From positions 2,008,839 through 2,072,838 of the forward strand of contig OY970240.1 of assembly GCA_963715445.1 (NCBI GenBank): a stretch of DNA of 64,000 bases, given 5' to 3'. Positions 8,796-58,991 of the stretch are shown piece by piece. Under the pieces are notes generated by a model that was given only the letters and a program-made list of their open reading frames with translations, was not told the origin of the DNA and did not search any database. The stretch is from an uncultured Solirubrobacterales bacterium. GTDB taxonomy: Bacteria; Actinomycetota; Thermoleophilia; Solirubrobacterales; Thermoleophilaceae. Positions within the stretch are counted from its first letter, which is position 1; every line of letters starts with the position of its first letter. The position numbers were made by a program, and so were the translations under genes.

Positions 8796-9113
8796 ATGGC
8801 CCGCACCACCACCAGCAACGACAAGCGCCGCGGCAAGCCCGGACTCAAGGGCGAGGCGCGCCGCTACTCGAAGCTTCCGCGCGAAGAGATCGAGAAGATC
8901 GACTACAAGAACATCGCGTTGCTGCAGCGGTTCATCACCGAGCGGGGCAAGATCCGCTCACGCCGCGTCACCGGCCTGAGCCGGCGCGACCAGTCGAAGA
9001 TGGCGCGTGCGGTAAAGCGCGCTCGCGAAGTGGGCCTGCTGCCCTACGTGGACCTCACCAAGGGCCTCGAGCGCCCTGGTGGCCGCGGCGGCCGCTCCCG
9101 CGACCGCGACTAG
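8796..9113 (+). CDS. rpsR: 30S ribosomal protein S18 (stand-alone copy, no Cys)
   Basis: [58 protein letters not shown] at 8796 in the frame of the long shadow ORF 7755..9113. Confidence 0.85.
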
Positions 9114-10042: not shown

Positions 10043-10151
10043 GCGGGGGTTCGCTGGGCCCACGGGTTGCGCGAGCCAACCTGAGCCTATGTGGGCGTGC
10101 AAGTGATCGAGACTCATTCCCGGGAAGGGGGAGGGCGCTTCTGGGTACAAG

Positions 10152-10166
10152 TGAGAATAATTCTCA
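10152..10166. promoter_or_regulatory. 7-1-7 palindrome TGAGAAT-A-ATTCTCA, Zur (Fur-family) box candidate
   Basis: Perfect AT-rich palindrome in the 139-bp divergent CDF/ZnuA intergenic region. Resembles the actinobacterial Zur consensus TGAAAATGATTTTCA. Confidence 0.6.
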
Positions 10167-10181
10167 GTATGTTCTCTCGCC

Positions 10182-12025: not shown

Positions 12026-12706
12026 ATGTCCTGCTTCCGCGGTGTGGTCGTGGCGGCGCTCTTGGCGCTCATCGCGACCCCGGCCGCCTTCGCCCACGGC
12101 GGAGGCGGCACCGATTACAGCTCGAAGATCCGGTCGGTAACCCCGGCCGTCTCCGGGCTGCGCGTGCACGTCCTCGATCGGGACGACCGCCTCGAGCTGC
12201 GCAACCGGAGCGGGCGCACCGCGGTGGTGGAGGGCTACAGCCGCGAGCCGTACATCCGACTGGGCGGGGATGGAACGGTCGAGGTGAACCGTCGCTCCCC
12301 GGCGCTCTACCTGAACGAGGACCGCCTCGGCGCGACCGACGTGCCGCCGTCGGCAGACGAGCGGGCCGCGCCCCAGTGGAAGCGCGTGAGCGACTCCGGC
12401 AGGTACACCTGGCACGACCACCGCATCCACTGGATGGGCGCGAAACGGCCGGACCAGGTGCGGGATCCGGGTGTGCGCACGAAGATCTTCGACTGGAAGG
12501 TGCCGCTGCGAGTCGGCGCTCGCAAGGGGGAGATCGCCGGCACGCTGCTCTGGGTCGGCCGGCCGGGACAGAGCTTTCCGCTCGGGGCCGGCATCGGGCT
12601 CGCCGTGGCGATCCTCGGCGGGCTGGCGCTGGTGATCGTCGTGCGCCGCAGACGGCGGTTGGGTTCGAGTGGCGCTGCGTCGCAGCCTGAGCGGGAGGCG
12701 TGGTGA
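12026..12706 (+). CDS. Secreted, C-terminally membrane-anchored protein of unknown function (copper-cluster associated)
   Basis: Signal peptide ending AAFA followed by HGGGG. C-terminal TM LAVAILGGLALVIVV plus RRRRR. GAGGAGG RBS upstream. Overlaps the CopCD start. Confidence 0.65.
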   Translation: MSCFRGVVVAALLALIATPAAFAHGGGGTDYSSKIRSVTPAVSGLRVHVLDRDDRLELRNRSGRTAVVEGYSREPYIRLGGDGTVEVNRRSPALYLNEDRLGATDVPPSADERAAPQWKRVSDSGRYTWHDHRIHWMGAKRPDQVRDPGVRTKIFDWKVPLRVGARKGEIAGTLLWVGRPGQSFPLGAGIGLAVAILGGLALVIVVRRRRRLGSSGAASQPEREAW

Positions 12707-14463
12707 AGCTCACGCGCGCTCGCGGCATCCTGGGGACGCTGGCCTGTGCCGGATGCGCGGTCCTGGCCGCCCTTCCTGCGGATGCTGCCGCGCACGCGGT
12801 CCTCGAGAGCGCTCAGCCCGCCCGCGGAGCCGCGCTGGAACGTGCGCCGAAGCAGGTCTCGCTCAGCTTCAACGAGCCGATCGAGTCGAGCTTCGGGGCG
12901 CTGCGCGTGTTCAACGCCGACGGTGAGCGTGTGGATCGAGGGAGCGCCCAGCGCCCCTCCGGCAGTGCGATCTCCGTGCAGCTGAGGAACGGCTTGTCGG
13001 ACGGGCCTTACACGGCCACCTACCGCGTCGTCTCGGCCGATTCGCATCCGGTCGTGGGCGGCTACGTCTTCACCGTCGGCAAGGCGGGCGGCCTCGCTGC
13101 CGCCTCCGTCGCCGAGCTGCTGGATGCGGAAGCGGGGCCGGTCACGGAGACCGCGTTCGGGGTGGTCAGGGCCGTTGGCTACGGCGCGATCGCGCTGCTG
13201 ATTGGCGGGCTCGTGTTCCTGACCCTCGTCTGGCTGCCCTCGCTGCGGGCCGTCGGTGGTGCTCGGGAGGGTGCGGGGGAGGCCTTCGAGCATCGAGCCG
13301 GGCGCCTGCTCGTGGGCGCCGCGCTCGCGGGCCTCTTGAGCACCGTGCTCGGAATCGTGCTGCAGGGAGCCACCGCGAGCGGCGGGTCTTTCTGGTCCGC
13401 GCTCGACACGGGCGTGATCCACGACGTGCTCAACACCCGCTTCGGCACCGTGTGGAAGCTGCGCGTCACGGCTTTCGGGCTGCTCGTGCCGCTGCTGCTC
13501 TACCTGCCCGCTCTGCGTGGAAGGCGCGAGGTGAAACGCGAGGCGGCGCTCGAGCTGCTGCGGAACGTGGCGCTCGTCCTGGCGCTCGCCTACCTGGCCG
13601 TCTCGCCGGCGCTCGCGGGCCACGCCGCCGCGGGCGATCAGGCCGCGCTGCTCGTCCCGCTTGACGTGCTGCACGTGCTCGCGATGAGCGTCTGGGTCGG
13701 CGGCGTTGCGCTGCTCGCGCTGGTGGTGCCTGTAGCGACGCGGCTGCTCGACCCGCCCGATCGGACCCGCCTGCTCGCCACGGCGGTCTCGCGGTTCTCC
13801 ACGATCGCTCTGGCTGCGGTGGTCGCGCTGCTGGCAACCGGGATCTTCCAGTCGATCCTCCACCTCGACGCGTTCGCCGACCTCGTAGACACGGCGTTCG
13901 GCAGGGCGATCCTCGTCAAGTCCTCGATCTTCGTCGCGCTGGTGGCGATCGGCGCCCACAACCGCCGCCGCTCCCAGCCCGCGCTCGCGCGGCTGGCATC
14001 GGGGGGAGAGCCTCCCGGACGCGCCGGCCTCGTGCTGCGGCGAGCGCTGCGGGCCGAGGTGGGTCTGATGGTCCTCGTCCTCGGCGTGACGGCCGCGCTC
14101 GTGAGCTACTCGCCGTCGGCCGGCGTTCAGAGCGGGCCGTTCTCCGGCACCGCCGAGCTTGGGCCGGCGCGGCTCGAGCTCACGGTCGATCCCGCACGCG
14201 TTGGCCGCAACGAAGTCCACGTCTACCTCTTCAACAGGGGCACCGGTGCGCAGTACGACCGGCCCAGCGAGCTGGCGATCAGCGCGGCCGAGCCCGAGCG
14301 CGGCATCGGGCCGCTCGAGCTCCGAGTTCGCAAGGCCGGCCCGGGTCACTACACGGCCCCGGTCGCCGAGCTGGTCCCGGGAGGCGATTGGGACCTGACC
14401 GTGCGGGCGCGGATCTCCGAGTTCGAGGAGCTGAGGGCCGAGCTGGAGGTGCCGGTCCGATGA
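12700..14463 (+). CDS. CopC-CopD fusion copper resistance/uptake protein (YcnJ-like)
   Basis: Signal peptide AAA followed by HAVLESAQP, and CopC motif YTATYRVVSADSHPVVGGYVFTV, followed by a polytopic CopD-like region and a C-terminal extracytoplasmic domain. Confidence 0.85.
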   Translation: MVKLTRARGILGTLACAGCAVLAALPADAAAHAVLESAQPARGAALERAPKQVSLSFNEPIESSFGALRVFNADGERVDRGSAQRPSGSAISVQLRNGLSDGPYTATYRVVSADSHPVVGGYVFTVGKAGGLAAASVAELLDAEAGPVTETAFGVVRAVGYGAIALLIGGLVFLTLVWLPSLRAVGGAREGAGEAFEHRAGRLLVGAALAGLLSTVLGIVLQGATASGGSFWSALDTGVIHDVLNTRFGTVWKLRVTAFGLLVPLLLYLPALRGRREVKREAALELLRNVALVLALAYLAVSPALAGHAAAGDQAALLVPLDVLHVLAMSVWVGGVALLALVVPVATRLLDPPDRTRLLATAVSRFSTIALAAVVALLATGIFQSILHLDAFADLVDTAFGRAILVKSSIFVALVAIGAHNRRRSQPALARLASGGEPPGRAGLVLRRALRAEVGLMVLVLGVTAALVSYSPSAGVQSGPFSGTAELGPARLELTVDPARVGRNEVHVYLFNRGTGAQYDRPSELAISAAEPERGIGPLELRVRKAGPGHYTAPVAELVPGGDWDLTVRARISEFEELRAELEVPVR

Positions 14464-27648: not shown

Positions 27649-28338
27649 TCACGGGTCGTCGTCGGCTCCAGGAGGGTCGCGCAGCACCGCGAGGCCGCTA
27701 GCGATCTGGTCTAGCTTGCCGCCGAGCGGCGTCAGGGATTTGTCTATCTGCTCGCCGAAGGCTTGTGCCAACCTGCGCTCAGGGTCGGCCGCAAGGAATC
27801 GCTCCCGCGCTCCGCTGAGAGCGTCGCGCCAATCGGCGAGCTCAAGGAAGTGCTCGTCAACGAGATGCGTCTTCCCACTGGCGTCCTTCATCGTGCCGGT
27901 CAGCGAGACGCCGGCATAGGTCGCTGGTAGCGAGTTGATGTTGTCCGACAAGCCGCCAGGCGGCATGAAGTCTCGCTGCTCGCCGCTGCTGAGAACGTTC
28001 TTTCGCCAACGCCGCTCGTCCTTAGCGGTCTCAGCAGCGATTGGCTTGAAGACGATTCGGACATCCACGGCGAATGCAGCTCCCGGACCTACGTTGCGTA
28101 TCGCGACGGTGACGGTCGCGGGTCCGAGACGATGAAACTCGATGGCCAGCTTCGGCAGGATGGCGCTCTCGCGAGCGAGCTGCATCTCGGCGACCATGCG
28201 CCGGTTCTGGATCGCGTAGTAGACGGTGACGGCAATCAACACCGCCGTGAGCAGCGCGGTAAAGGCACCTTGGTGAGCGTCTAGGTAGTCGATCACGGGC
28301 GTGATTGGGATCTGCACATCAGTTGGCGCGCGATACAT
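27649..28338 (-). CDS. Hypothetical N-terminally membrane-anchored protein
   Basis: TM FTALLTAVLIAVTVYYAI followed by a roughly 180-aa domain with no recognised motif. Confidence 0.5.
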   Translation of the reverse strand: MYRAPTDVQIPITPVIDYLDAHQGAFTALLTAVLIAVTVYYAIQNRRMVAEMQLARESAILPKLAIEFHRLGPATVTVAIRNVGPGAAFAVDVRIVFKPIAAETAKDERRWRKNVLSSGEQRDFMPPGGLSDNINSLPATYAGVSLTGTMKDASGKTHLVDEHFLELADWRDALSGARERFLAADPERRLAQAFGEQIDKSLTPLGGKLDQIASGLAVLRDPPGADDDP

Positions 28339-28444
28339 GCGGCGATGCTCTCAGAGCAGGTACAGGTGGCTACGTTCGACGCCCCCGGAGCGAGAAACGA
28401 CTGCCCATTGTCCCTCCAGCCGTCCCATCACCGCCCCTAGAACG

Positions 28445-28468
28445 CAAAAACCCGCTCTGGGAGCGGGT
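28445..28468 (-). terminator. Rho-independent terminator after tRNA-Glu
   Basis: Minus strand ACCCGCTC-CCAG-AGCGGGT followed by TTTTTGCG. Confidence 0.6.
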
Positions 28469-28475
28469 CAAGCAG

Positions 28476-28548
28476 TACCGCCACGGGGATTCGAACCCCG
28501 GTTTCCGCCGTGAGAGGGCGGCGTCCTAGTCCCCTAGACGATGGCGGC
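28476..28548 (-). tRNA. tRNA-Glu (anticodon CTC)
   Basis: GCCGCCATCGTCTAGGGGACTAGGACGCCGCCCTCTCACGGCGGAAACCGGGGTTCGAATCCCCGTGGCGGTA. Anticodon loop CTCTCAC. G1-U72 wobble. 73 nt. Confidence 0.85.
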
Positions 28549-28643
28549 GCGGCGGTCGATTGTACAACTGGACCGCCGATGCGCCCAGACGCCTCGAAGA
28601 AGGGGCAGCGGCGGCGAGCGCGATGGCTGTGTCTGACGCGCGG

Positions 28644-28820
28644 GTGTAGGCTTGCCGTGTTCATACGGCCGGTGGCCAGGGAAGTCCGGTGTGAATCCGG
28701 CGCGGTCCCGCCACTGTGACAGGGCGTTGAAGCCCCGCACGACCGCAAGGTCAGCCACTGAGAGCCCTACGGGCGATCGGGAAGGCGCGGAGCAGAGCCC
28801 CAAGCCAGGAGACCTACCTC
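28644..28820 (+). promoter_or_regulatory. Cobalamin (B12) riboswitch
   Basis: Core CAGGGAAGTCCGGTGTGAATCCGGCGCGGTCCCGCCACTGTGA and B12-box-like AGCCAGGAGACCTACC. Candidate P1 pairing GTAGG/CCTAC. Sits 40 nt before the first operon ATG. Confidence 0.8.
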
Positions 28821-28858
28821 CGGCCGCGATCAGTCAACCCTCGAGGAAAGGGCGATCT

Positions 28859-29848
28859 ATGCAGATCTCCACTCGACGTTCCCTGCGCGGGCTAGCGGTT
28901 TCCGCCTGCGCTGTTACCGCCGTTGCCGCGGCTCCGATGGCGGCCAACGCCGCCACCACCGCCGACCTCCGCGTGGAGGCAGGCGGCAAGACGCTCGTCC
29001 CATCCGGCTACTCGTTCGCAACCGACACGGTGAAGGCGAAGACCGACACTCGTCCCGAGTGCGGTGGCTCGGGCAAGAGCGTGACGCTCGACGGGCCCAA
29101 TGCGCTCGGCCTGCTCGTTGACGCTTCGAGCGCTCGCAAGCCGCTGGCCCCTGTCGGAGTCTCTGACAAGTTCAGCTTCGGCCTGCTCGTCTGCGGCGTT
29201 GGTCGGTTCATGTCCGATGCCACGTCGTTCTGGCTCTACAAGGTCGATCACAAGTCGCCTGAGGTGGGCGCGGAGCAGTTCGCGCTGACCGGTGGCGAGG
29301 AAGTCCTCTGGTTCCGCCAGTCGGGCGCCGTGAACAGCGGCTCCGAGCTGGCGATCGAGGCTCCCGTGCGTGCGAAGCGCAAGGGTGCGTTCGACGTCAC
29401 GGTGGTCGCCTACGACTTCGCCGGCAAGAAGACCCCGGCGGCAGGGGCGCAGGTGAACTTCCCCGGTGGCAGCGCCATCGTGGGAGCCGACGGTCGGGCC
29501 GAGGTGAAGGTCTCCAAGGCCGGACAGGCCAAGCTCAGCGCCACTCGCGGCATCGACATCCCCACCGGGGCTGTTGAGGTCTGCATCGGCAAGAAGCTCT
29601 CCGACTGCTCCGCCAAGCGCGGCAAGCGGATCTTCGGCACGCCCAAGGGCGATGAGCTCAAGGGCACAGGCGGTCCCGACGTGATCAGCGCCGGCGCAGG
29701 CAAGGACGAGATCGACGTTCGCCGGGGCGGCGAGGACAAGGTCAAGTGCGGCAAGGGCCGTGACAGCGTCCGCATCGGCAAGGGCGACAGCGCCGCGAAG
29801 GACTGCGAGGTCGTGAACGGCGAGCCGCGCAGCGCAGGCAAGAAGTAG
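28859..29848 (+). CDS. Secreted DUF4430-like protein with Ig-like middle domain and C-terminal RTX-like Gly/Asp repeats
   Basis: Signal peptide ...MAANA. FWLYKVDHKSPEVGAEQFALTGGEEVLWF (DUF4430 signature). GTPKGDELKGTGGPDVISAGAGKDEIDVRRGGEDKV repeats. ATG at 28859 after GAGGAAAGGG. Confidence 0.7.
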   Translation: MQISTRRSLRGLAVSACAVTAVAAAPMAANAATTADLRVEAGGKTLVPSGYSFATDTVKAKTDTRPECGGSGKSVTLDGPNALGLLVDASSARKPLAPVGVSDKFSFGLLVCGVGRFMSDATSFWLYKVDHKSPEVGAEQFALTGGEEVLWFRQSGAVNSGSELAIEAPVRAKRKGAFDVTVVAYDFAGKKTPAAGAQVNFPGGSAIVGADGRAEVKVSKAGQAKLSATRGIDIPTGAVEVCIGKKLSDCSAKRGKRIFGTPKGDELKGTGGPDVISAGAGKDEIDVRRGGEDKVKCGKGRDSVRIGKGDSAAKDCEVVNGEPRSAGKK

Positions 29849-29858
29849 TAGTCGAGCG

Positions 29859-30626
29859 ATGAACCTGCCCAGGCTCAAGGCACGCATCGCCGCGGGGGCG
29901 CTCGTCGCCTGCGCGGCGGTCGTGCCCGCCTGGGCTGGGCCGCTCGCGACCGGTGCCGCGGCGCCGGTCGCATCGCTCTCCGCGGGACCGTTCCTGGATC
30001 ACACGGTCGCGTTCCGCGGGAGCAAGGTGCTGGTCAAGAAGGTCAAGGCTCCTGCCGTCACCGTGCGCGTTGGCAAGCGCAAGCGCTGCGCGGTGGCGGC
30101 ATGGACGCCGCTCGCCGCCCTGGTGCGGGCGAAGCCGGGCAAGGTCCTCCTGAAGGACTTCGGATCCTGCTCGCTCAAAAACGCCCAGGACGGGGCGGGG
30201 CTGTTCGTGAAGTCGATTCGTGGCCAGCAGAACCATCGCCAGGACGGCTGGGTCTACAAGGTCGGCCGTCGGCTCGGCACCGCCGGGGTGGCCGATCCCT
30301 CGGGGCCCTTCGGTAGCGGCCGCCTGCGCGCCGGTCAGCGGCTCCTCTGGTTCTACTGCGTCTACGAGGACGGGAGCTGCCAGCGGACGCTGGAGGTGAA
30401 GCTGAAGGATCAGGGCGGCGGCATCGCCTCGGCGTTCGTCAGGGGCTTCGACGACGGTGGCAACGGGGTGCCCGTGGAGGGCGCCAAGGTCACCGCGGGA
30501 GCTGCATCGGCGATCACCGGGGCGGACGGCAGAACGAGCCTGCAGCTGTCGCAGGGCCTGCACGTCGTGTACGCGTCCAAGGCCGGGGCGATCCGCTCCT
30601 TCGGCGAGCGACTGACGGTGCGCTGA
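29859..30626 (+). CDS. Secreted DUF4430-like protein with C-terminal Ig/carboxypeptidase-regulatory-like domain
   Basis: Signal peptide ...VPAWA. GWVYKVGRRLGTAGVADPSGPFGSGRLRAGQRLLWFY. Confidence 0.65.
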   Translation: MNLPRLKARIAAGALVACAAVVPAWAGPLATGAAAPVASLSAGPFLDHTVAFRGSKVLVKKVKAPAVTVRVGKRKRCAVAAWTPLAALVRAKPGKVLLKDFGSCSLKNAQDGAGLFVKSIRGQQNHRQDGWVYKVGRRLGTAGVADPSGPFGSGRLRAGQRLLWFYCVYEDGSCQRTLEVKLKDQGGGIASAFVRGFDDGGNGVPVEGAKVTAGAASAITGADGRTSLQLSQGLHVVYASKAGAIRSFGERLTVR

Positions 30627-31552
30627 TGCGCCGGGCGCCGCTGCTGTGCTGCCTGGCGGCGATGGCCGCGGTGGCCGGCTGCGGGTTCGGCCCTGGTGAC
30701 GAGCAGTCGGGCAAGGGGGTCGACCTGCGGGTGACGCGGGACTTCGGCCACGAGCTGCTGTCCTCGGAGGGAAGCCGCCCGATTCGCGAGGGCGAGACGG
30801 TGATGCGCCTGCTGCGCTCCAGCAACGAGGTTGGAACGCGCTTCGGCGGCGCCTTCGTGCAGTCGATCGACGGCTTGGAGGGGCGCGGCGCAACCGGGGC
30901 GCACGACTGGTTCTTCTACGTGAACGGGATCGAGTCGGACCGCGGCGCGGCCGATTACGAGCTCTCGCCGGGAGACGTCGTCACCTGGGACTACCGGGAC
31001 TGGGGGGCGGCGATGGGCGTGCGCGCGATCGTCGGCGCGTTCCCGCAGCCGTTCATCGGCGGGCTCGACGGCAAGCGCTTTCCCGTGCGGGTGGAGTGCG
31101 AGGACGCTTCAGGAGATCCCTGCGAGGAGGTGAAGGAGCGCCTTCGTGACCTCGGGGTGCCCGCCACGGGCGCATCGCTCGGCGCGCCCGGGACCCAGCG
31201 CGTGGCGCGGGTCGTGGTGGCCACCTGGAGCCGCGCGCGCGAGCTGCCGAGCGCGCGCCAGCTGGAGCGCGGGCCGAAGATCAGCGGGGTGTTCGCCCGC
31301 TTCGCCGAGGACGGCGCGGCGCTCGAGCTGCTCGGCGAGGACGGCGAGACCGCCCGCACCGATCGCGCCGGTGGTGGCCTGGTGGCCGCGCTGCGGCCGA
31401 CCGACGACGAGCTGCTCTGGCTGGTCGTGGGAGTCGATGATGAGGGAGTCGAGAATGCCGCCGAGGCCTTCCGGGCGCGAGACCTGCGCGACGCGTTTGC
31501 GGTCGCGGCGGGCCCGGAGGGAGTTCACAAGCTGCCGCTGGAGATCGAGTGA
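30626..31552 (+). CDS. DUF4430-like lipoprotein
   Basis: Lipobox AAVAGC. DWFFYVNGIESDRGAADYELSPGDVVTWDY. Its ATG overlaps the preceding stop (TGATG). Confidence 0.7.
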   Translation: MRRAPLLCCLAAMAAVAGCGFGPGDEQSGKGVDLRVTRDFGHELLSSEGSRPIREGETVMRLLRSSNEVGTRFGGAFVQSIDGLEGRGATGAHDWFFYVNGIESDRGAADYELSPGDVVTWDYRDWGAAMGVRAIVGAFPQPFIGGLDGKRFPVRVECEDASGDPCEEVKERLRDLGVPATGASLGAPGTQRVARVVVATWSRARELPSARQLERGPKISGVFARFAEDGAALELLGEDGETARTDRAGGGLVAALRPTDDELLWLVVGVDDEGVENAAEAFRARDLRDAFAVAAGPEGVHKLPLEIE

Positions 31553-32466
31553 GCGCCGGGGGGTGGGGAGGACCGCTGAGCGCCGGGCGCATGGTTCCGG
31601 TCTACCGTCAGCGCGCCAGCCCTCTTCACGCCGCGCGCGCGAGCGTCACCGCATCTCTCTGCGCGGCGTTCGCCCTCGTCTGCTCGCTGTACGAGAGCCC
31701 ATTCGTGCTGCTCACTGTCATCGCGGCGGTGGTCGGGCTCGGGGTCGCGGCGGGAGTGGGGCGGGAGCTCGCGCGCACCGCGTTGTTCTCGGTGCCGCTC
31801 GCGCTCCTCGTGATGCTCATCAACCCGCTCGTCTACCGCGACGGGGAGACCCTGCTGATCAGGGGAGGGACCTTCCTCGGCCGCCGCTTCGACATCACGC
31901 TCGAAGCCCTGGCGGCCGGCGGGCTGGCCGGTCTGCGGGTGATCGCCTTCGTGATGGCCTTCGGCCTCTTCTCGGCGTGCGTCGACCCTGACGACATGCT
32001 GCGTGCCTTCCGCCGCTTCTCCTACCGCTCGGCGCTCACCGCGGCGCTTGCCACCCGTCTCGTGCCGGTGCTCGCGCGCGATGCCACCCGCATGGGGGAC
32101 GCGATGCGCTGCCGCCCCACCCAGCCCGGCCGGTTGGCGGTTGCGCGGGCCGCCCTCTCCGGCGCGCTCGACAGGGGTGTGGAGGTCGCGGCGGCGCTCG
32201 AGGTGCGCGGGTACTCACGAGCCGGGAAGCCCGTGCGCTCGCCACGACCGTGGTCGCGTCACGACCTGCGGGTGGCCACGGCTGCCGTCTTCGTCGCTGT
32301 ATCGGCGATTGCCCTTCGGATCGCGGGCGCGGGAGCGATCGAGAAGTACCCGCAGATCGATTTCGCGCCCGGCCCCGCCGACGCCGCGCTCTGCGCCTGC
32401 CTGCTGCTTGCCGCCGCGCTCCCGTTCGCCGGGCGCTCGGCGCGGCTGGGGGTCGCCCGTGCCTGA
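31549..32466 (+). CDS. Energy-coupling factor transporter transmembrane component (EcfT/CbiQ family)
   Basis: YRQRASPLHAARASV..., RSALTAALATRLVPVLARDATRMGDAMRCRP. GTGA overlap with the previous gene; alternative ATG at 31591. Confidence 0.8.
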   Translation: MSAGGWGGPLSAGRMVPVYRQRASPLHAARASVTASLCAAFALVCSLYESPFVLLTVIAAVVGLGVAAGVGRELARTALFSVPLALLVMLINPLVYRDGETLLIRGGTFLGRRFDITLEALAAGGLAGLRVIAFVMAFGLFSACVDPDDMLRAFRRFSYRSALTAALATRLVPVLARDATRMGDAMRCRPTQPGRLAVARAALSGALDRGVEVAAALEVRGYSRAGKPVRSPRPWSRHDLRVATAAVFVAVSAIALRIAGAGAIEKYPQIDFAPGPADAALCACLLLAAALPFAGRSARLGVARA

Positions 32467-32494
32467 TCGCGGACAGTCGATAGGCCAGGACACG

Positions 32495-34114
32495 ATGGTC
32501 GGCCAGGCGCCGCTCGTTCGGGTGGAGGGCTTCTCCTACCGCTACCCCGAGCGCGAGGTGGATGCGCTGCGCGACGTGACGCTCGAGCTCGGCCCGGGGA
32601 GCTTCACCGTGCTGGTCGGCGAATCGGGATCGGGCAAGTCGACGCTCCTGCGCGCGCTCTGCGGGCTCGTTCCCCACTTCCACGGCGGCGATGTGGCCGG
32701 GGAGCTGGAGGTCGGCGGGATGAGCGTGCGGGAGCACGGCCCGGGCGAGCTCGCGGCCGTGTGCGGAACCGTCTTCCAAGACCCCGAGGTCCAGGTGGTG
32801 ATGGGCGGCGTGCGCGCTGAGCTCTCGCTGCCGCTCGAGCACCGCGGCGAGACGCCGGCGGCCGTGGCCCGTGCCGTCGAGGAGGTGGCGCTGACGCTGG
32901 GCATCGCGCACCTGCTCGACCGTCGCAACGACACGCTCTCGGGAGGCGAGCTGCAGCGGGTTGCGATCGCCGCCGCGCTCGTCCACCGTCCGGCCCTGCT
33001 CGTGCTCGACGAGCCGACCTCCCAGCTCGACCCCGTCGCCGGGGACGAGCTGATCTGGCTGTTGCGTCGCCTCAACGAGGAGCAGGGCACGGCGGTCGTG
33101 ATCGCCGAGCACCGGCTCGAGCGCTGCCTGCCCGCGGCCGATCGCGTGATCGCGATCGATGGTGGCGCCGTCGTCTGCGACGCGTCTCCGGAGGAGTTCC
33201 TCGCCTGGGCGGTGGAGGACGGTGGCGGGCTCGCCACGCCGATCTCGAGGCTCTTCGACCTGACCGGCCTCGGCCCGCTGCCGACTTCGGTCAAGGAGGC
33301 CCAGGCGCTGCTCGGTGACGCAGGGCTCGTCCCCGCGCCGGGCGAGCCTCTCCAGCAGACGGCCGATTCCGAGGAGAGAGCGCCGAGGCGCCCATGGCGC
33401 CGCCGCGAGCGTGAGCCGGCCGCCGTGGAGGCACGTGGACTGTGGCACGAGCTGGAGGACGGCGTGGCGATCCTGCGCGGCATCGACCTGCGTGTGGAGC
33501 CCGGCGAGCTGGTCGCGCTGATGGGGCGCAACGGCGCCGGCAAGTCCACGCTCCTGCGCCACCTCAAGGGCCTCGCCGAGCCGACGCGAGGCAGCATCGA
33601 GCGCTCCGGCGAGGTTGCCTTGCTGCTCCAGAACCCGGGCGACTACCTGATCCACGAGCACGCCGGTGAGGAGGTCGGGCTCGCGGGCCTGGCCGCCGCC
33701 GGGCTCGCCGATCGGGAGCAGTCCAACCCGCGCGACCTCTCCGGCGGGGAGCGCCAGCGCCTGGCGCTCGAGATCGTGCTGGAGGGCGGGCCCTGCGCCG
33801 TGGCCTGCCTCGACGAGCCCACGCGCGGCATGGACCGCGCGCACAAGGATGCGCTCGCGGCCCGTCTTGGCGAGCTGGCGCAGGACGGCGCGGCGGTGAT
33901 CGTCGCGACTCACGACACGGAGTTCGCGTCCACCTTCGCCACGCGCGTCGTATTGATGGGACAGGGGGTCGTCATCGCGGACGGCCAGCCCGTCGAGGTG
34001 CTCGCGGGCGGCTGGCACTTCTCGACCGAGGTGGCGCGCGCGCTCGGCGGCGCCGGTGGAGCGCTGACCCCCGAGGAGGGAGCCGAGCTGATCGGAAGGG
34101 AGCTGGCCCGGTGA
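32495..34114 (+). CDS. ECF/ABC transporter ATPase, fused double nucleotide-binding domain (EcfA-EcfA')
   Basis: Two Walker A motifs (GESGSGKST, GRNGAGKST), two signature motifs (LSGGELQR, LSGGERQR), two Walker B motifs (LLVLDEPT, VACLDEPT). Alternative GTG start at 32459 overlaps the EcfT stop. Confidence 0.85.
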   Translation: MVGQAPLVRVEGFSYRYPEREVDALRDVTLELGPGSFTVLVGESGSGKSTLLRALCGLVPHFHGGDVAGELEVGGMSVREHGPGELAAVCGTVFQDPEVQVVMGGVRAELSLPLEHRGETPAAVARAVEEVALTLGIAHLLDRRNDTLSGGELQRVAIAAALVHRPALLVLDEPTSQLDPVAGDELIWLLRRLNEEQGTAVVIAEHRLERCLPAADRVIAIDGGAVVCDASPEEFLAWAVEDGGGLATPISRLFDLTGLGPLPTSVKEAQALLGDAGLVPAPGEPLQQTADSEERAPRRPWRRREREPAAVEARGLWHELEDGVAILRGIDLRVEPGELVALMGRNGAGKSTLLRHLKGLAEPTRGSIERSGEVALLLQNPGDYLIHEHAGEEVGLAGLAAAGLADREQSNPRDLSGGERQRLALEIVLEGGPCAVACLDEPTRGMDRAHKDALAARLGELAQDGAAVIVATHDTEFASTFATRVVLMGQGVVIADGQPVEVLAGGWHFSTEVARALGGAGGALTPEEGAELIGRELAR

Positions 34115-36033
34115 CCTGGCAGCTGTCCTCGTTCGCGATCCTCGCGCTGCTGCTGGTGCTCGGCTTCGGCTGGTACGAACGCCGCCGCCCACCGGCCCGC
34201 GTGGTCGCTCTCGTGGCCGTTCTCGCCGCGCTGGCCGTGGTCGGCCGGCTCGCCTTCGCGGCGATCCCGAACGTCAAGCCCACCACGGACATCGTCCTCT
34301 TCGCGGGCTACGCGCTCGGGCCGATCCCCGGCTTCGCGGTCGGCTCGATCACCGCGCTCGTGTCGAACGTCTTCCTCGGCCAGGGCCCCTGGACCGCGTG
34401 GCAGATGGTCGGCTGGGGCGCCTGCGGCGTCGGGGGCGCGCTGCTCGCGCGGATGTCCGGCGGCCGAGACCTGGGGCGGGTGCCGCTGGCGATCGCCTGC
34501 GGCGTCGCCGGCCTCGCGTTCGGAGCGTTCATGGACGTCTACCAGTGGACGCTCGCCGCCCAGCAGGATCTCGCCACCTATCTGGCCATCTCCGGCACCT
34601 CGCTTCCCTACAACCTCGCTCACGCCTTTGGCAACGTGGGCTTCTGCCTCCTGATCGGTCCGATCTTCATCCGCTCGCTGCGCCGCTACCGCCAGCGCTT
34701 CGAGGTCCACTGGGAGGCTCCGGCTCGAGCGGTCGGCGCCGCGCGGGGCATTGCGGTGGCGGCGCTTGCGGCTCTCGCGATCGCCACGGGGCTCACGGTG
34801 CCCACAGAGTCAGCGCGGGCGGGTGGGCAGCACGCAGAGGCCAGCTCTACACCGGCGGCGCAGCTCGCGGCGGCGTCGCCCGCGAAGCGGGCGGTGCGCT
34901 ACCTGGCGGCGGTCCAGAACCGCGACGGCGGCTTCGGCGGCGGGCGCGGGCTGTCCTCCAACCAGCTCTACACCGGCTGGGTAGCGCTGGGGCTGGCCGC
35001 GGCCCGGCGCAACCCGCGCGACCAGCGGCGGGCCCGCGGCCGGGCGGTCACGCGCTACCTGCGCAGCCAGCTCGGCGGCCTGACCGACATCGGCGAGATC
35101 GAGCGCACCGTTCTCGTCCTGCGCGCGGCGGGGATCTCGCCGCGCTCGTTCGGCGGGCGCGACCTGGTTGCCGACATCGAGCGCCGCCGCCGCCCGAACG
35201 GCTCGATCGCCGAGTACGTCAGCTACACGGCGTTCGGCATCCTCGCGCTGAAGGCATCTGGCGCCCCGGTCTGGGGAACCGCGGCTACCTATCTCGAGCG
35301 CTCGCAGAACTCCGACGGCGGCTTCGGCATAGCGCCCGGTACCTCGAGCGACACGGACATGACCGGCGCGGCCCTCCAAGCACTTGCGGTGGTCGGCCGC
35401 GGGAGCGGGGAGGCCTCACGCCGAGCGGTCGAGTACCTGGTCCGCCGGCAGAGCCCGAACGGGGGCTTCGGCGCCACCGAGGGGCGCGACCCCAACGCCC
35501 AGTCGACCTCCTACGCCGTGCAGGGCCTACTTGCCGTGAAGGGCGCGCCGGGAACGCTGAATCGCGCCATCTCCTACCTGAAGCGCCTCCAGCGTTCGGA
35601 CGGATCGTTCCGCTACTCCAGCTCGAGCGATCAGACACCCGTCTGGGTGACCGCCCAGGTGCTGATGGCCCTGCGCCGCAAGCCTCTGCCGCTGGCCGCT
35701 CTGCCGCGCAAGAAGCGTCCCCGCGCGAGCGCCGCCGCCACTCCGCCTGCCGAGGGGACAGCGCAAGATGGCGCCGCCGCCAAAGATCGGAAAAAGGGCT
35801 CCGCCACCGCCGGCAGCTCCCAGTCCCCGGCGGCCGAGGAGAGCGGCGGGACCACAGCCGCCCCGGCCGCCTCTTCGGAGCAGGCCGATTCTCAGCTCGC
35901 GAGCGCGGCGGCCGATCGCGCCGACGAGGAGGGCGGCGGGTCAACCACGCTGATCGTCCTCGGCGCATGCGCGGCCCTGATCCTCGCGGGCATGCTGCCC
36001 TGGCGCTTTCGCGCCAAGCCTCTCGACGGCTAG
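34111..36033 (+). CDS. Fusion: ECF S-component-like membrane domain, extracellular prenyltransferase/squalene-oxidase-repeat (alpha/alpha barrel) domain, and C-terminal TM anchor
   Basis: N-terminus about 190 aa polytopic (IPNVKPTTDIVLFAGYALGP, GPWTAWQMVGW). Then repeats QNRDGGFGGG, RPNGSI, QNSDGGFG, QSPNGGFG, QRSDGSF. A Pro/Ala/Ser-rich linker and a final TM. GTGA overlap with the ATPase gene. Confidence 0.7.
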   Translation: MTWQLSSFAILALLLVLGFGWYERRRPPARVVALVAVLAALAVVGRLAFAAIPNVKPTTDIVLFAGYALGPIPGFAVGSITALVSNVFLGQGPWTAWQMVGWGACGVGGALLARMSGGRDLGRVPLAIACGVAGLAFGAFMDVYQWTLAAQQDLATYLAISGTSLPYNLAHAFGNVGFCLLIGPIFIRSLRRYRQRFEVHWEAPARAVGAARGIAVAALAALAIATGLTVPTESARAGGQHAEASSTPAAQLAAASPAKRAVRYLAAVQNRDGGFGGGRGLSSNQLYTGWVALGLAAARRNPRDQRRARGRAVTRYLRSQLGGLTDIGEIERTVLVLRAAGISPRSFGGRDLVADIERRRRPNGSIAEYVSYTAFGILALKASGAPVWGTAATYLERSQNSDGGFGIAPGTSSDTDMTGAALQALAVVGRGSGEASRRAVEYLVRRQSPNGGFGATEGRDPNAQSTSYAVQGLLAVKGAPGTLNRAISYLKRLQRSDGSFRYSSSSDQTPVWVTAQVLMALRRKPLPLAALPRKKRPRASAAATPPAEGTAQDGAAAKDRKKGSATAGSSQSPAAEESGGTTAAPAASSEQADSQLASAAADRADEEGGGSTTLIVLGACAALILAGMLPWRFRAKPLDG

Positions 36034-36055
36034 CCCCGGCTGTTGGCCCCAGCGG

Positions 36056-36895
36056 CTAGCGCAGGGTGCGAGCAACGAGCGCGTCGAACCAGCGGTCCGG
36101 GATGCGCTTGGCGACCATCCACCGAATGCGGGCATCGCGGCCCACCAGGTAGCGCGTGCGCGGTCGCTTCGCCGTGAGCGCATGGGCGATGCTCTCGGCG
36201 ACCTCCGAGGGCTCGATGCCCGTCTCTGAGGCGATCTTGACGGACTGCTTGCGAATCGCCTCCACGAGGACGGCGTAGCGGCGCTTCCCCTCCTCCGGAA
36301 CCACCGCCTCGATCTCGTCGGCGGTCGAGGTGCCCTTTGCCCAGATCGGCGTCTTCACTCCGCCGGGCTCGATCACCGAGACGCTGATGCCCTGCCCGTG
36401 CAGCTCGCGGCGCAGGGTGTCGCTCACAGCCTCGAGCGCGAACTTCGAGGCGCTGTAGGGCCCCACCATGGGAAGCGCGATCCGCCCTCCGATGGAGCTG
36501 ACGTTGACGATCCGCCCGCGCGCTGAGCGCAGCAGTGGAAGGAACGCCTGGATCACCGCGACCTGGCCGATCAGGTTCACCTCGAGCTGTTCGCGGAGCT
36601 TGTCGATCGGCATGAACTCGAGCGGCCCGGACACCGCGATCCCGGCGTTGTTGACGAGCCCGGAGAGCCCTGCGGAGCCGACCTTCTCGCCGACCTCCTT
36701 GGCCGCGGTCGCGATCGACTCCGCGTCGGTCACGTCGATCGCCAGCGGTTTGACGCCGTGCTCGCGCAGGCGCTCCGCGTCGCCGTGGCCGCGGATGCCG
36801 GCGAAGACCTCGAAGCCCTCGTCGCGCAGCCTCTCGGCTGTGGCGAAGCCGATTCCCGTGGATGCCCCGGTGATCACAACCGTCCCGCGCGCCAT
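36056..36895 (-). CDS. Short-chain dehydrogenase/reductase (SDR)
   Basis: VVITGASTGIGFA, NNAG, YSASK catalytic motif. Confidence 0.85.
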   Translation of the reverse strand: MARGTVVITGASTGIGFATAERLRDEGFEVFAGIRGHGDAERLREHGVKPLAIDVTDAESIATAAKEVGEKVGSAGLSGLVNNAGIAVSGPLEFMPIDKLREQLEVNLIGQVAVIQAFLPLLRSARGRIVNVSSIGGRIALPMVGPYSASKFALEAVSDTLRRELHGQGISVSVIEPGGVKTPIWAKGTSTADEIEAVVPEEGKRRYAVLVEAIRKQSVKIASETGIEPSEVAESIAHALTAKRPRTRYLVGRDARIRWMVAKRIPDRWFDALVARTLR

Positions 36896-45638: not shown

Positions 45639-45806
45639 GCAGTGCGGTTCTACCACTCCCGTGGGCCGGAAGGCCCTGTTCCGACAGTGCGGCACCCTCT
45701 ATGATCTAAGCCGACTCGTATCAAGTTCTTTCATACGTGCCATGAGGGGTCCGGCGTGACGCGCTATACTTCTTACACTTCGTAAGCTGAGATGGAGGAC
45801 GAGGCC

Positions 45807-48112
<2,306 letters not shown>

Positions 48113-48116
<4 letters not shown>

Positions 48117-48929: not shown

Positions 48930-49092
48930 TTCGTAAAGACAAGCCGAGTCTCCGTCGCTCCATGCGACGGGGAACGGGGGAACCACTGGGGTCGGCAGCA
49001 CGCCGTCCCCCGGGGCGAATCACCGCCAGCGTGCGGTGTAGCGCACTTTCCAGCGCGAGCCCGTCAGCTCACCCCGTAGGCACCGGAAAGAG
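48930..49092 (+). promoter_or_regulatory. c-di-AMP riboswitch (ydaO/yuaA class)
   Basis: ACGGGGAACGGGGGAACCAC, CCGGGGCGAATCACC and GAGCCCGTCAGCTCACCCCGTAGGC match the conserved ydaO blocks. Located directly upstream of an Rpf-like gene. Confidence 0.7.
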
Positions 49093-49106
49093 GAGTCAAG
49101 AACGTT

Positions 49107-55342: not shown

Positions 55343-55777
55343 ATGGCATACAGAGGCCACTACGAACACTCGCTCGACGCGAAGAACCGGCTCAGCATCC
55401 CGGCGCGTTTCCGGGCGACCTTCTCCTCGGGCCTCGTTCTCGCCAAGGACAGCGACGACTGCATCTCCGTATGGACCCCGGAGGGGCACGAGTCGATCAT
55501 CGAGCGCGCGCTCGCGGGCAAGAACCCGCTCGGTCGCGAGTACAAGGGCGTGCAGCGCTTCTTCCAGTCCAACTCCTTCGACGTCGAGCTCGACTCGTCC
55601 GGCCGCGTCACGCTCCCGCCGCCTCTGCTCGCCTACGCGAAGATCGAGAAGGAGGTCGTCGTGGCTGGGGTGGGGGACCACCTCGAGGTCTGGGGCCGCG
55701 AGCGCTGGGATCAGGAGCAGCAGGCTCTCGATGCCAGCATCGGGGAGGTGACGGAGAGCCTTGGCGATCCTTCTTGA
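55343..55777 (+). CDS. mraZ: Transcriptional regulator MraZ
   Basis: HSLDAKNRLSIPARFR and LDSSGRVTLPPPL (two SpoVT/AbrB-like halves). Confidence 0.9.
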   Translation: MAYRGHYEHSLDAKNRLSIPARFRATFSSGLVLAKDSDDCISVWTPEGHESIIERALAGKNPLGREYKGVQRFFQSNSFDVELDSSGRVTLPPPLLAYAKIEKEVVVAGVGDHLEVWGRERWDQEQQALDASIGEVTESLGDPS

Positions 55778-55778
55778 C

Positions 55779-56732
55779 ATGACCCGCGCGCACGTACCCG
55801 TCCTGGCCGGTGAGCTGATCGAGCTGACCAACCCGGCCCCGGGCGACAATGTCGTGGACTGCACCTTCGGCGCGGGCGGCCACGCCCGGCTGATGGCGGA
55901 CCGCATCGGCTCCACCGGCACGCTCGTCTGCGTGGACCGCGATCCCGCCGCGGAGGAGCGCTTCGAGGAGCTCGCCGCCGAGGTGGCGTGCGAGACCCGC
56001 TTCCTGCGCATGGACTACGCCGACGCGCTCGAGCTGCTGAGCGCGGAGGGCTTCGAGGCGGACCTCGTCTACATGGACCTGGGCGTGTCCTCGATGCAGG
56101 TGGACACGCGCGAGCGCGGCTTCTCCTACTCCTACGACGCGCCGCTCGACATGCGCATGGATCCCTCGCAGGAGCTCGACGCGCGCACGATCGTCAACGA
56201 GTACGACGAGCGGCAGCTCGCCCAGCTCTTCCGCCGCTACGGCGAGGATCCCGGGGCCCACGCGATCGCGCGTGAGATCGGCCACCGCCGCCGCCGCGCA
56301 CCGCTCGAGACCACCGGCCAGCTGGTCGACGCGATCGAGGCGGCCACTCCGGCGTTCGTGCGGCGCAAGTTCGGCGGGGGGCACCCCGCCAAGCGCGTGT
56401 TCCAGGCGATCCGCATCGCCGTGAACGACGAGCTCGGCTCGCTGGACCGCGCCCTTCCCGCCGCTTGGAACGTGCTGCGCCAAGAGGGCCGCCTGGCCGC
56501 CATCTCCTTCCACTCGCTCGAGGACCGGCGCGTCAAGCGCTTCCTCGCCGAGCGCGCCCGCGGCTGCGTCTGCCCGCCGGACCTGCCGGTCTGCGTGTGC
56601 GGCCACGAGCCCGAGGCCGACCTGCTGACCCGCCGCGCTGTGGCGCCCACCCCTGGTGAGGTCGCGGACAACCCGCGCTCCAAGTCGGGGCGCCTGCGCG
56701 TGGCGCGCAAGATCAACGAGGAGCGGAGCTGA
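55779..56732 (+). CDS. rsmH: 16S rRNA (cytosine1402-N4)-methyltransferase RsmH
   Basis: HVPVLAGE, DCTFGAGGH, DLGVSSMQVD, SFHSLEDRRVK. Confidence 0.92.
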   Translation: MTRAHVPVLAGELIELTNPAPGDNVVDCTFGAGGHARLMADRIGSTGTLVCVDRDPAAEERFEELAAEVACETRFLRMDYADALELLSAEGFEADLVYMDLGVSSMQVDTRERGFSYSYDAPLDMRMDPSQELDARTIVNEYDERQLAQLFRRYGEDPGAHAIAREIGHRRRRAPLETTGQLVDAIEAATPAFVRRKFGGGHPAKRVFQAIRIAVNDELGSLDRALPAAWNVLRQEGRLAAISFHSLEDRRVKRFLAERARGCVCPPDLPVCVCGHEPEADLLTRRAVAPTPGEVADNPRSKSGRLRVARKINEERS

Positions 56733-57223
56733 TGGCCCGCGCTGCCGCTGCCCGGGTGCCCGCGCCCGCCCGCCGCGCCTCCACGCGCACCGCTCCCGCA
56801 CGTCCCGCACGCCGCCCGGCGCCCGCGGCTCGTCCCGCTTCTGCCTCGCGTGCACGTATCGCGGTGCGCTCGCACTCCGCGACGCTGCTCGACCGCCTCC
56901 TCCACAGCCCGGCGCTGATCGGCCTCGTCTTCGTGCTGCTCGTTGGGGTCGTCTTCTCCAACGTCGCCCTGCTCCAGAAGAGCCGCGGGATCACGCAGGC
57001 GAGCGCCCGCGCGACGATGATCAAGCACGAGAACGCGCGCCTGCGCGCCGAGGTTGCCCGGCTCGGCTCGAGCGAGCGGATCCAGCAGGTCGCCGCCGAG
57101 CGCGGCCTCGTGCTCCCGGCTCCCGGTGAGGTGCGCTACCTGCGCTCGCGCCCATCGATCGACGCTCGCAACGCCTCCCAGCGGATCGGCGCGGGGGCAA
57201 CCGCCGAGCAGCCGGTGCAGTAG
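56732..57223 (+). CDS. ftsL: Cell division protein FtsL-like (Arg/Ala-rich N-terminus, one TM, coiled coil)
   Basis: Position in the dcw cluster. TM LIGLVFVLLVGVVFSNV followed by HENARLRAEVARLGSSERIQQVAAE. Confidence 0.7.
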   Translation: MARAAAARVPAPARRASTRTAPARPARRPAPAARPASASRARIAVRSHSATLLDRLLHSPALIGLVFVLLVGVVFSNVALLQKSRGITQASARATMIKHENARLRAEVARLGSSERIQQVAAERGLVLPAPGEVRYLRSRPSIDARNASQRIGAGATAEQPVQ

Positions 57224-57231
57224 GGGCGCCT

Positions 57232-58875: not shown

Positions 58876-58927
58876 CCTTCACATCCGCCGACCTTGGCTC
58901 GGCGACGAAGGGCTTGCTTTCAGGTTT

Positions 58928-58964
58928 GGGCGAGTTGCGGCCGCATTGTGGCCGCAACTCGCCC
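58928..58964. terminator. Perfect 15-bp-stem hairpin GGGCGAGTTGCGGCC-GCATTGT-GGCCGCAACTCGCCC
   Basis: Lies between convergent ftsI and the antisense secreted-protein gene. Confidence 0.65.
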
Positions 58965-58991
58965 GTCGGCCTTTACACGGTGGCGGGATCC

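Follow-up and report, generated by a model that had tools for sequence, protein, structure and literature searches.

A CbrT-type ECF transporter S-component fused to an alpha/alpha toroid in cobalamin-riboswitch-led operons of Thermoleophilia

Import of vitamin B12 by an energy-coupling factor (ECF) transporter has been characterized for ECF-CbrT of Lactobacillus delbrueckii (PDB 6FNP), in which CbrT is the experimentally shown substrate-binding subunit (S-component) for B12 and cobinamide, and for which a gene cluster with the order nrdJ-cbrS-cbrT-pduO has been cited (Santos et al. 2018, PMC5997447). In the work that defined the SLBB superfamily, Burroughs, Balaji, Iyer and Aravind (2007) described bacterial transcobalamin-like SLBB proteins that carry signal peptides, are often fused to a toroid, often have a second paralogue in the operon and lie near CbiO-like and CbiQ-like genes; they predicted that these proteins scavenge B12 and that animal transcobalamin, in which toroid and SLBB domain cooperate, arose from bacteria (PMC1796856). 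Verplaetse et al. (2019) described the ECF operon lsa1836-1840 of L. sakei, with a secreted transcobalamin alpha-like protein (Lsa1840) and a beta-like protein (Lsa1839), for which hand-over to the S-component was proposed and haem uptake was reported (bioRxiv 10.1101/864751). Here we describe a gene of an uncultured Solirubrobacterales bacterium in which a CbrT-like S-component and an alpha/alpha toroid form a single polypeptide, encoded at the end of an ECF operon led by a cobalamin riboswitch. The gene lies in a stretch of 64,000 nucleotides (contig OY970240.1 of assembly GCA_963715445.1, positions 2,008,839 to 2,072,838), which we call the window and to which all coordinates refer unless another locus is named.

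The N-terminal part of the fusion protein is an ECF S-component. When its first 230 residues were compared with all PDB chains using phmmer, the sole significant match was 6FNP_A (E 4.9e-16); fusion residues 30-196 aligned with residues 10-175 of this 182-residue chain, covering all six helices, and none of the other solved S-components was matched in the PDB even at E-values up to 10. The chain shares 99 % identity with a protein cluster, the close relatives of which carry the Lactobacillus annotation 'ECF transporter S component'; this identifies the chain as the S-component of the complex. A BLASTP comparison of the core with L. delbrueckii CbrT (P0391) gave 31 % identity over 147 residues, and the motifs common to both (IPNVKPTTDI in the fusion and IPNVQPVTDI in CbrT, SNVFLGQGPWT and SNIFLGFGIWT, HAFGN and HAAGN) are the most conserved ones of the Thermoleophilia family. 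With Pfam, ECF-ribofla_trS was matched at aa 31-160 with a borderline 27.0 bits (cut-off 26.7) and ECF_trnsprt with 26.3 bits, under its cut-off of 30.7; together the S-component models cover aa 31-172. In an AlphaFold2 (AF2) model built from 43 homologues (mean pLDDT, the predicted local confidence score, of 80.5), the core helices lie at aa 29-48, 58-69, 71-89, 95-115, 123-148 and 154-181, followed by a short basic amphipathic helix at aa 183-196. Ala36 and Ala40 in helix 1 form an Ala-x3-Ala motif that is invariant over the 43 homologues. In S-components, the Ala-x3-Ala motif of helix 1 serves docking on EcfT. An initial annotation of the window, made from the sequence alone, had proposed an S-component at this position and had named a mismatch with S-component profiles as evidence that would count against it. 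The CbrT homology and the ECF-ribofla_trS match bear the proposal out, except that the region holds seven helices and not just the six of the S-core, the additional N-terminal transmembrane (TM) helix, TM0, having gone uncounted.

TM0 is absent from L. delbrueckii CbrT. It begins with an invariant Trp at position 3 followed by a Gln kept in at least 90 % of homologues. In the seven-helix S-components CbiM and NikM, an external N-terminus enters the binding site. The N-terminus of TM0 recalls that arrangement and, by analogy, could share in substrate binding or gating.

The gene context agrees in its own right with a B12 transporter. The fusion gene is the last of six closely packed genes that follow a cobalamin riboswitch on the same strand, with stop/start overlaps at three of the five junctions, and the riboswitch ends 24 nt before the ATG of gene 1 (Table 1). 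Rfam confirms a cobalamin riboswitch in 8/8 diverse related loci, and a profile built from the Rfam-confirmed loci (nhmmer) located one, on the same strand, in all 67 loci that have at least 5.8 kb of upstream DNA. The EcfT gene, whose start overlaps the stop of gene 3, is kept in 76 of 80 related loci, and the gene for the fused ATPase EcfA-A' is present in all 80. EcfA-A', read from the ATG at 32495 before MVGQAPLVRVEGF, matches the NCBIfam models ECF_ATPase_1 and ECF_ATPase_2 with 257 and 247 bits. Among the 80 loci, every one of the 73 with enough upstream DNA has gene 3 and the order gene 1 and/or gene 2, gene 3, T, AA', fusion. CbiM was not matched and no protein with a substrate-binding-protein (SBP) fold is encoded in the operon, whereas T- and S-components are; the operon does not have the make-up of an SBP-dependent (type I/II) ATP-binding cassette (ABC) importer. 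Taken together, these data make it highly likely that the fusion gene encodes the S subunit of a B12-regulated, CbrT-type ECF importer. B12 as the substrate is strongly indicated by the CbrT-like core, which matches no other S-component, by the riboswitch and by the conserved operon with its transcobalamin-beta-like partner proteins.

The operon boundaries can be placed on both sides. The gene 3' of the fusion gene, a short-chain dehydrogenase (36056..36895, − strand), is convergent, which sets the end of the operon at 36033. On the other side, ∼80 nt before the riboswitch, there is a tRNA gene (28476-28548, − strand) with a terminator-like hairpin (28449-28469) ahead of it; two related loci (L001 and L020) have this tRNA neighbor as well, so that the upstream boundary is conserved. 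A scan of 28300..36300 for a sigma-70-like promoter or a + strand terminator returned neither and was uninformative.

Following the membrane core, the protein contains an alpha/alpha toroid of the prenyltransferase/terpene-cyclase type. The AF2 model shows a single barrel (aa 248-521) of 12-13 helices with pLDDT values of 95-98, in which five Q/RxxDG/NG-type repeats are found (QNRDGGFG, RRPNGSIA, QNSDGGFG, QSPNGGFG and QRSDGSFR). The Pfam families matched are Prenyltrans (E 5.8e-15), SQHop_cyclase_C (E 4.5e-10) and SQHop_cyclase_N (E 3.4e-06), all within aa 258-453, as well as TED. By structure (Foldseek), the relatives are class II terpene cyclases, including the small single-barrel cyclases 8PAK/8PAJ (TMt 0.59), and the beta subunits of prenyltransferases (FTase/GGTase beta). 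A toroid profile built from 15 sequences matched the drimenyl diphosphate synthase SsDMS (7XQ4, E 8e-31) in the PDB, and squalene-hopene cyclase (SHC) as well. The barrel type proposed in the initial annotation is thereby upheld, its extent being about 290 aa and not 330. The toroid also matches the NCBIfam model NF053823 ('SCO2321 family membrane protein') with 77.8 bits, the cut-off being 300; the match suggests that Streptomyces may have a family of toroids that stand alone and are anchored in the membrane, and we found no literature on the SCO2321 family.

Two features of the toroid bear on its possible ligand. It retains an acid motif, SDTDMTG (aa 413-419, 35347-35367), whose D414 and D416 align with D301 and D303 of SsDMS, D303 being the residue mutated in deposited catalytic variants; the third Asp is Met here and Met or Leu in most family members, with the full SDVDDTG in 35 and SD.DMTG in 59 of 121. 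Among the toroid homologues, neither Cys nor His is invariant at any position in aa 250-540, and a prenyltransferase zinc site is hence missing. The toroid is one barrel and lacks the two-barrel (beta-gamma) cyclase architecture. In addition, invariant polar residues start six of the barrel helices (S283; E329/R332/T333; T373; D414/D416; N462/Q464/S465/T466; Q508/P510/W512), which, placed on the model, is the pattern expected of a ligand funnel.

The toroid is very probably extracytoplasmic, as judged from the predicted topology and the distribution of charges. Mean numbers of Lys plus Arg were calculated for each segment over the 43 homologues, and for the tail after the last helix over those homologues (113 of 120) in which a C-terminal TM helix is present (Table 1). 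The termini of S-components are both cytoplasmic, as established from structures. Because the CbrT alignment spans the six helices, TM7 must lead the chain outward and TM8 must lead it back in, and the positive-inside pattern likewise puts the toroid outside, tethered at both ends. A repeat domain in the cytoplasm, which the initial annotation had named as evidence that would count against its reading, is not what the prediction gives. The uncharged N-terminus (M-T/S-W-Q), followed by TM0 and a basic loop, points to an N-terminus outside the cell, and the exported partner proteins described below fit an external toroid. The linker contains 22 Ala, 9 Gly, 9 Ser and 6 Glu over aa 541-610 (70 of its 71 residues), has a median length of 80 aa across the family (range 19-131), and is followed by TM8 and, in the homologues, by a basic tail. 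TM7 largely overlaps the segment GIAVAALAALAIATGLTV (aa 213-230) that the initial annotation had marked as a further TM helix; its low-complexity linker, its last TM anchor and its outer-face, doubly tethered barrel are likewise recovered here.

Table 1. Features of the operon and of the fusion protein. Window coordinates are given where available; K+R, mean number of Lys plus Arg.
Feature	Position	Strand	Basis or value
Cobalamin riboswitch aptamer, operon leader	28631..28835	+	Rfam RF00174, 78.2 bits (gathering threshold 31.5), E 1.4e-17, full-length
Gene 1, secreted: signal peptide, SLBB/DUF4430-like region, beta-sandwich, RTX-like tail	28859..29848	+	ATG at 28859
Gene 2, secreted paralogue of gene 1 (SLBB-like region and beta-sandwich)	29859..30626	+	Signal-peptide-like N-terminus
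Gene 3, lipoprotein: N-terminal DUF4430/SLBB domain and uncharacterised C-terminal domain	30626..31552	+	Lipobox AVAGC
EcfT, CbiQ-family transmembrane coupling subunit	31549..32466	+	Pfam CbiQ, E 4.4e-13; NCBIfam ECF_T_CbiQ, weak
Fused EcfA-EcfA' ATPase, two ABC domains (start approximate)	32495..34114	+	Pfam ABC_tran, two stretches, E 1.3e-46
Fusion gene, GTG start, 640 aa: TM0, CbrT-like S-core, TM7, alpha/alpha toroid, linker, TM8	34111..36033	+	
TM0, aa 2-25, extra N-terminal helix, N-terminus predicted outside	34114..34185	+	AF2 helix 2-25
CbrT-like S-component core, aa 29-196, six helices and basic amphipathic helix	34195..34698	+	phmmer to PDB, BLASTP, AF2
TM7, aa 208-227, predicted to take the chain from cytoplasm to outside	34732..34791	+	AF2 helix; hydropathy 1.98
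Alpha/alpha toroid, aa 248-540, terpene-cyclase/prenyltransferase-beta-like, with SD.D(D/M)TG	34852..35730	+	Pfam, AF2, Foldseek
Linker, aa 541-611, disordered, Ala/Ser/Gly/Glu/Pro-rich	35731..35943	+	pLDDT 32-56
TM8, aa 612-634, C-terminal membrane anchor, then basic tail, predicted cytoplasmic	35944..36012	+	AF2 helix; hydropathy 2.15
Loop aa 22-30 (after TM0)			K+R 3.2
Loop aa 115-123			K+R 2.9
Segment aa 182-207 (before TM7)			K+R 6.9
Tail after TM8 (15 aa)			K+R 5.5
Loops aa 49-57, 90-95 and 148-154			K+R 0-1
Segment after TM7			K+R 0.37

The fusion is a genuine and widespread gene. The initial annotation had itself cautioned that a frameshift or an assembly error might have joined two genes, which would here be one for an S-component and one for a prenyltransferase-like protein, into the long open reading frame (ORF). 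We found nothing in favor of such an artefact, consider its probability negligible and have rejected it. In this region of ∼73 % G+C, the GTG start of the gene and the stop of the ATPase gene before it share 4 nt (GTGA), and the G+C content at third codon positions of its frame is 0.94, 0.90, 0.87 and 0.84 in four consecutive segments; being high throughout, it does not indicate a frameshift. Among 5.8 billion proteins searched (E<=1e-5), 5179 matched, of which the best 120 all measure 548-730 aa and all have barrel domains, most of them with an S-component Pfam match as well; one full-length homologue is 92 % identical. When 1.84 billion cluster representatives were scanned with HMMER, 556 clusters (50 % identity) scored E<=1e-30. 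Relatives occur in at least 596 species-level genomes (GTDB contigs, one genome per species), independent of one another and mostly from Thermoleophilia, which answers the call of the initial annotation to look for the same fusion elsewhere and agrees with its view of a single fused gene. The named hosts among the matches listed are Thermoleophilaceae, Solirubrobacterales/Solirubrobacteraceae and unclassified Actinomycetota, and the databases name the homologues either 'ECF transporter S component' or 'prenyltransferase/squalene oxidase repeat-containing protein' and nothing more. The protein departs from the small (∼20 kDa) stand-alone format of S-components in its nine predicted TM helices and its external domain of 290 aa. 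A tblastn search of plasmids for non-fused actinobacterial relatives gave three weak matches (Embleya, Kitasatospora), and at the Embleya locus neither a riboswitch nor, in the frames tested, any gene recognisable by Pfam was found.

The three genes at the start of the operon encode proteins with export signals that are related to the beta domain of transcobalamin to differing degrees. This is well supported for gene 3, whose N-terminal domain of ∼100 residues matches Pfam DUF4430 (aa 56-123, 54.7 bits) and adopts, in the AF2 model (pLDDT 80, predicted TM score (pTM) 0.81), the transcobalamin beta-domain fold. Foldseek matched this domain, with modest E-values of ∼1e-3 to 1e-2, to the beta domains of transcobalamin, intrinsic factor and haptocorrin (5NO0/5NP4 with TMt 0.62-0.63 and a root-mean-square deviation of 3.3-3.7 A, 2BB5/2BB6, 2PMV and 4KKI), and also to the bacterial DUF4430 structure 3U7Z. 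The lipobox cysteine of gene 3, C19, is invariant. Its conserved C-terminal alpha/beta domain of ∼180 aa (aa 131-308, 31016-31549) belongs to no Pfam family, and its sole structural likeness is a weak one to BcsB (Foldseek E 7e-4; TM-score 0.36 by query and 0.19 by target); this domain could dock onto the toroid or EcfT.

The assignment has weaker support for the SLBB-like regions of genes 1 and 2, which occur in 43 and 39 of the 80 related loci. Gene 1 begins with MQISTRRSLRGLAVSACAVTAVAAAPMAANA, and its two Pfam matches, DUF4430 (19.9 bits) and HemolysinCabind (20.3 bits; cut-off 23), are both below cut-off. In a comparison of family alignments (hhalign), a region of it matched the DUF4430 part of the gene-3 family with 94.7 % probability (E 5.8e-8). 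The C-terminus of gene 1 has repeats like the RTX-type calcium-binding nonapeptides (29843-29848 region; aa 329-359 of the ORF starting at 28652), which may give calcium-dependent folding or surface attachment. Gene 2, which has no Pfam match, is a paralogue of gene 1 (99.6 %, E 1.3e-24); its family alignment matched the DUF4430 region of gene 3 with 74 % probability (E 2.8e-5), and a comparison of the single gene-2 sequence with the gene-3 family was too weak.

The reading that we favor, and consider rather probable, is that the operon encodes a dedicated B12/corrinoid ECF importer whose S-component bears the 'alpha half' of a split transcobalamin-like trap, the 'beta halves' being supplied in trans. 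The fusion protein would be the substrate-specific subunit of an importer for vitamin B12 or other corrinoids that is repressed through the cobalamin riboswitch. TM7 would bring the chain back out of the cell, so that the toroid would sit near the membrane, held by TM7 on one side and by the flexible linker and TM8 on the other. At the cell surface, the toroid and an SLBB protein would sandwich the corrinoid, as the domains of transcobalamin and intrinsic factor do, and present it right above the covalently attached CbrT core. The core would then topple against EcfT, with import powered by ATP hydrolysis at EcfA-A'. Owing to three flexible stretches of the protein (the basic segment 182-207, the low-confidence segment 226-247 and the linker that follows the toroid), the core may be able to topple without moving the toroid. 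At high B12 levels, the operon would be turned off by the riboswitch. Capture of the corrinoid by the toroid and SLBB pair, which would feed the attached core, is on balance the likelier outcome; we infer B12 binding by the barrel from analogy with transcobalamin. The interpretation given in the initial annotation is kept in part: the conserved S-component/toroid fusion stands, and the cobalamin system around it, with its CbrT homology, B12 riboswitch and three DUF4430-type partners, had been missed.

A bolder variant, which we regard as doubtful, is that the toroid and an SLBB lipoprotein together hold B12 very tightly, in the manner of transcobalamin, and that this trap is coupled mechanically to the transporter. 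Since the toroid is tied to the S-core via TM7 and to the membrane via TM8, ATP-driven toppling would open the trap by pulling on it and so drive B12 into the cavity of CbrT. If true, the ECF importer would have an obligate, covalently attached receptor outside the cytoplasm. Such an arrangement would overcome the difficulty that ultra-high-affinity binders have in releasing their ligand, and the animal B12 carriers would have a bacterial relative whose halves are separate.

Several observations weigh against a split trap for B12. Two or three Asp residues of the class II cyclase-type DxDD motif are kept in the toroid and, judged from the alignment, could point to another ligand or activity. 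Pfam Cobalamin_bind is absent from the toroid at E-values up to 10 (15 family members), and no transcobalamin appeared in the toroid profile search of the PDB or in the top 50 Foldseek matches. The tie to the transcobalamin alpha domain is therefore one of fold class and context, and 'transcobalamin alpha-like' is to be understood as an analogy and not as demonstrated homology. The pTM of the full-length model is 0.54, so that the relative placement of the domains is not fixed by it. The homologous L. sakei system has been tied experimentally to haem and not to B12 (10.1101/864751), and L. delbrueckii CbrT binds B12 with nM affinity without any toroid (PMC5997447), which means that a toroid is not strictly needed by such transporters.

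These points feed three other explanations, each of which we consider less probable than a toroid that captures corrinoids. The toroid could be a docking or scaffold module that holds the SLBB lipoprotein(s) by the S-component, or positions the complex in the envelope, with only the SLBB proteins and CbrT binding the corrinoid. An isolated transcobalamin beta domain does bind cyanocobalamin alone (PDB 5NP4), CbrT of lactobacilli goes together with a small DUF4430 protein in the absence of a toroid, TED/prenyltransferase-like toroids often mediate protein contacts, and the fusion toroid lacks sequence similarity to transcobalamin; yet the most conserved toroid residues are polar and funnel-like at the helix starts rather than forming a surface patch, and in transcobalamin the toroid supplies much of the B12 site (PMC1796856). 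We therefore hold a scaffold to be unlikely. A toroid that acts as an extracytoplasmic enzyme or binder for a non-corrinoid ligand (an isoprenoid, an envelope lipid or a glycan) through the cyclase-type motif, and is merely co-regulated with B12 uptake, is a good deal less likely still. The conservation of SD.D(D/M)TG, complete in more than a quarter of the family, the alignment of D416 with a catalytic residue and the kinship with real terpene cyclases all speak for it. However, the single barrel of ∼290 aa is far smaller than the best-matching class II cyclases in the PDB (SsDMS, ∼514 aa; SHC, 631 aa), the third Asp is replaced in most members, a zinc site is missing, and a covalent fusion to CbrT under strict riboswitch control is hard to explain for a lipid enzyme.

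Finally, the substrate could be another tetrapyrrole, namely haem, or cobalt. B12 riboswitches are generally known to control cobalt transporters too. The reported haem uptake by the related lsa1836-1840 operon (10.1101/864751) points in the same direction; on the other side stand the S-core match to CbrT and to no other S-component, the missing CbiM, a cobalamin riboswitch that is universal in the family and partner domains that resemble transcobalamin beta. A substrate other than B12 is, in our estimate, at least as improbable as a non-corrinoid role of the toroid.

Outside the operon, the window is ordinary chromosome. A c-di-AMP (cyclic di-AMP) riboswitch of the ydaO/yuaA type (48932-49097, + strand, 70 bits) lies ∼13 kb downstream of the fusion gene; another was found ∼4 kb downstream of the fusion gene in the related locus L023 (13464-13610 of that locus, 62.8 bits), which suggests conserved synteny. 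Elsewhere, the window contains a CDF cation-efflux protein (9110-10390), CopC/CopD (12691-14463), Lon protease (45786-48116) and, at 55752-61882, the start of a dcw cluster with MraW methylase, a penicillin-binding transpeptidase and a Mur ligase. No B12-dependent enzyme or cob gene was found among ten large ORFs scanned outside the operon.

The lack of an extracytoplasmic binding protein is, to our knowledge, the defining property of ECF transporters. Across the Thermoleophilia, a bacterial class abundant in soil, a B12 S-component would have a large external domain and would be accompanied by transcobalamin-beta-like lipoproteins. The fusion can be read as 'Rosetta-stone' evidence that the predicted bacterial toroid and SLBB proteins act physically at the S-component of an ECF transporter. 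It would also be a tractable system in which to ask how CbrT is loaded with a vitamin of 1.3 kDa, how toppling is possible for an S-component with three extra TM helices and an ectodomain, and how the animal transcobalamin architecture may have arisen, and it has a bearing on competition for B12 in soil communities.

Comparison with the known systems shows which of these features are new. ECF-CbrT shares with the fusion system the homologous six-helix core, EcfT and EcfA/A', and, in lactobacilli, a DUF4430 neighbor. In L. helveticus, the gene between nrdJ and cbrT encodes a 136-aa DUF4430 protein (loci L082 and L083, 4589-4999 in each; order nrdJ-DUF4430-cbrT-pduO) and sits at the position of cbrS in the published cluster (PMC5997447). 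The pairing of CbrT with an SLBB protein hence spans Firmicutes and Actinomycetota, and the model B12 ECF system thus appears, from its gene order, to have a transcobalamin-beta-like partner too. CbrT itself differs in being a 182-aa stand-alone protein that uses a general, shared ECF module (group II), whereas the fusion protein has an extra N-terminal TM helix and the TM7-toroid-linker-TM8 extension, and its own operon with EcfT, a fused EcfAA' (group I style) and a B12 riboswitch.

The L. sakei operon is alike in encoding S, T, a fused A-A', an exported prenyltransferase-like toroid and an exported SLBB/DUF4430 protein, and in the idea of a hand-over. It differs in that the toroid, Lsa1840, which we liken to the fusion toroid by its description, is free and secreted and haem has been reported as the substrate; in the fusion system, the toroid is covalent on the S-component, and there are three SLBB proteins and a cobalamin riboswitch. 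The proteins surveyed in 2007 agree in their exported SLBB domains, paralogous SLBB genes per operon, CbiO-like and CbiQ-like neighbors, toroid partner and predicted B12 scavenging. In that survey, which predates the definition of S-components, the toroid is fused N- or C-terminally to the SLBB domain, and a toroid fused to an S-component is not described, nor did we find such a fusion in the literature searched. The blurring of the line between ECF transporters and SBP-dependent importers, which the initial annotation had put forward, was therefore anticipated as an idea by these two studies (PMC1796856; 10.1101/864751), and the toroid/SLBB/ECF module is already known as a prediction.

Animal transcobalamin, intrinsic factor and haptocorrin likewise combine an alpha/alpha toroid with a beta-grasp SLBB module, and the gene-3 domain matches their beta domain structurally. 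They are, however, single soluble polypeptides taken up by receptor-mediated endocytosis, whereas in the fusion system the halves are on different polypeptides, one of them joined to the transporter, and the toroid has no detectable sequence similarity to the alpha domain. Permanent capture modules are also present in GlnPQ and OpuA, in which substrate-binding domains are fused to the membrane domains of ABC importers, and in BtuG, a B12 binder on the surface of Bacteroides. These resemble the fusion system in keeping a capture module at the transporter and raising the local substrate concentration and, for B12, in the competition for a scarce vitamin, but their folds (periplasmic-binding-protein and beta-propeller) and transporter classes (type I ABC and TonB-dependent BtuB) are unrelated. 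Relative to all of these systems, the new features here are a toroid held covalently on an S-component by way of two added TM helices, the presence of TM0, and control by a riboswitch that is uniform throughout a whole bacterial class.

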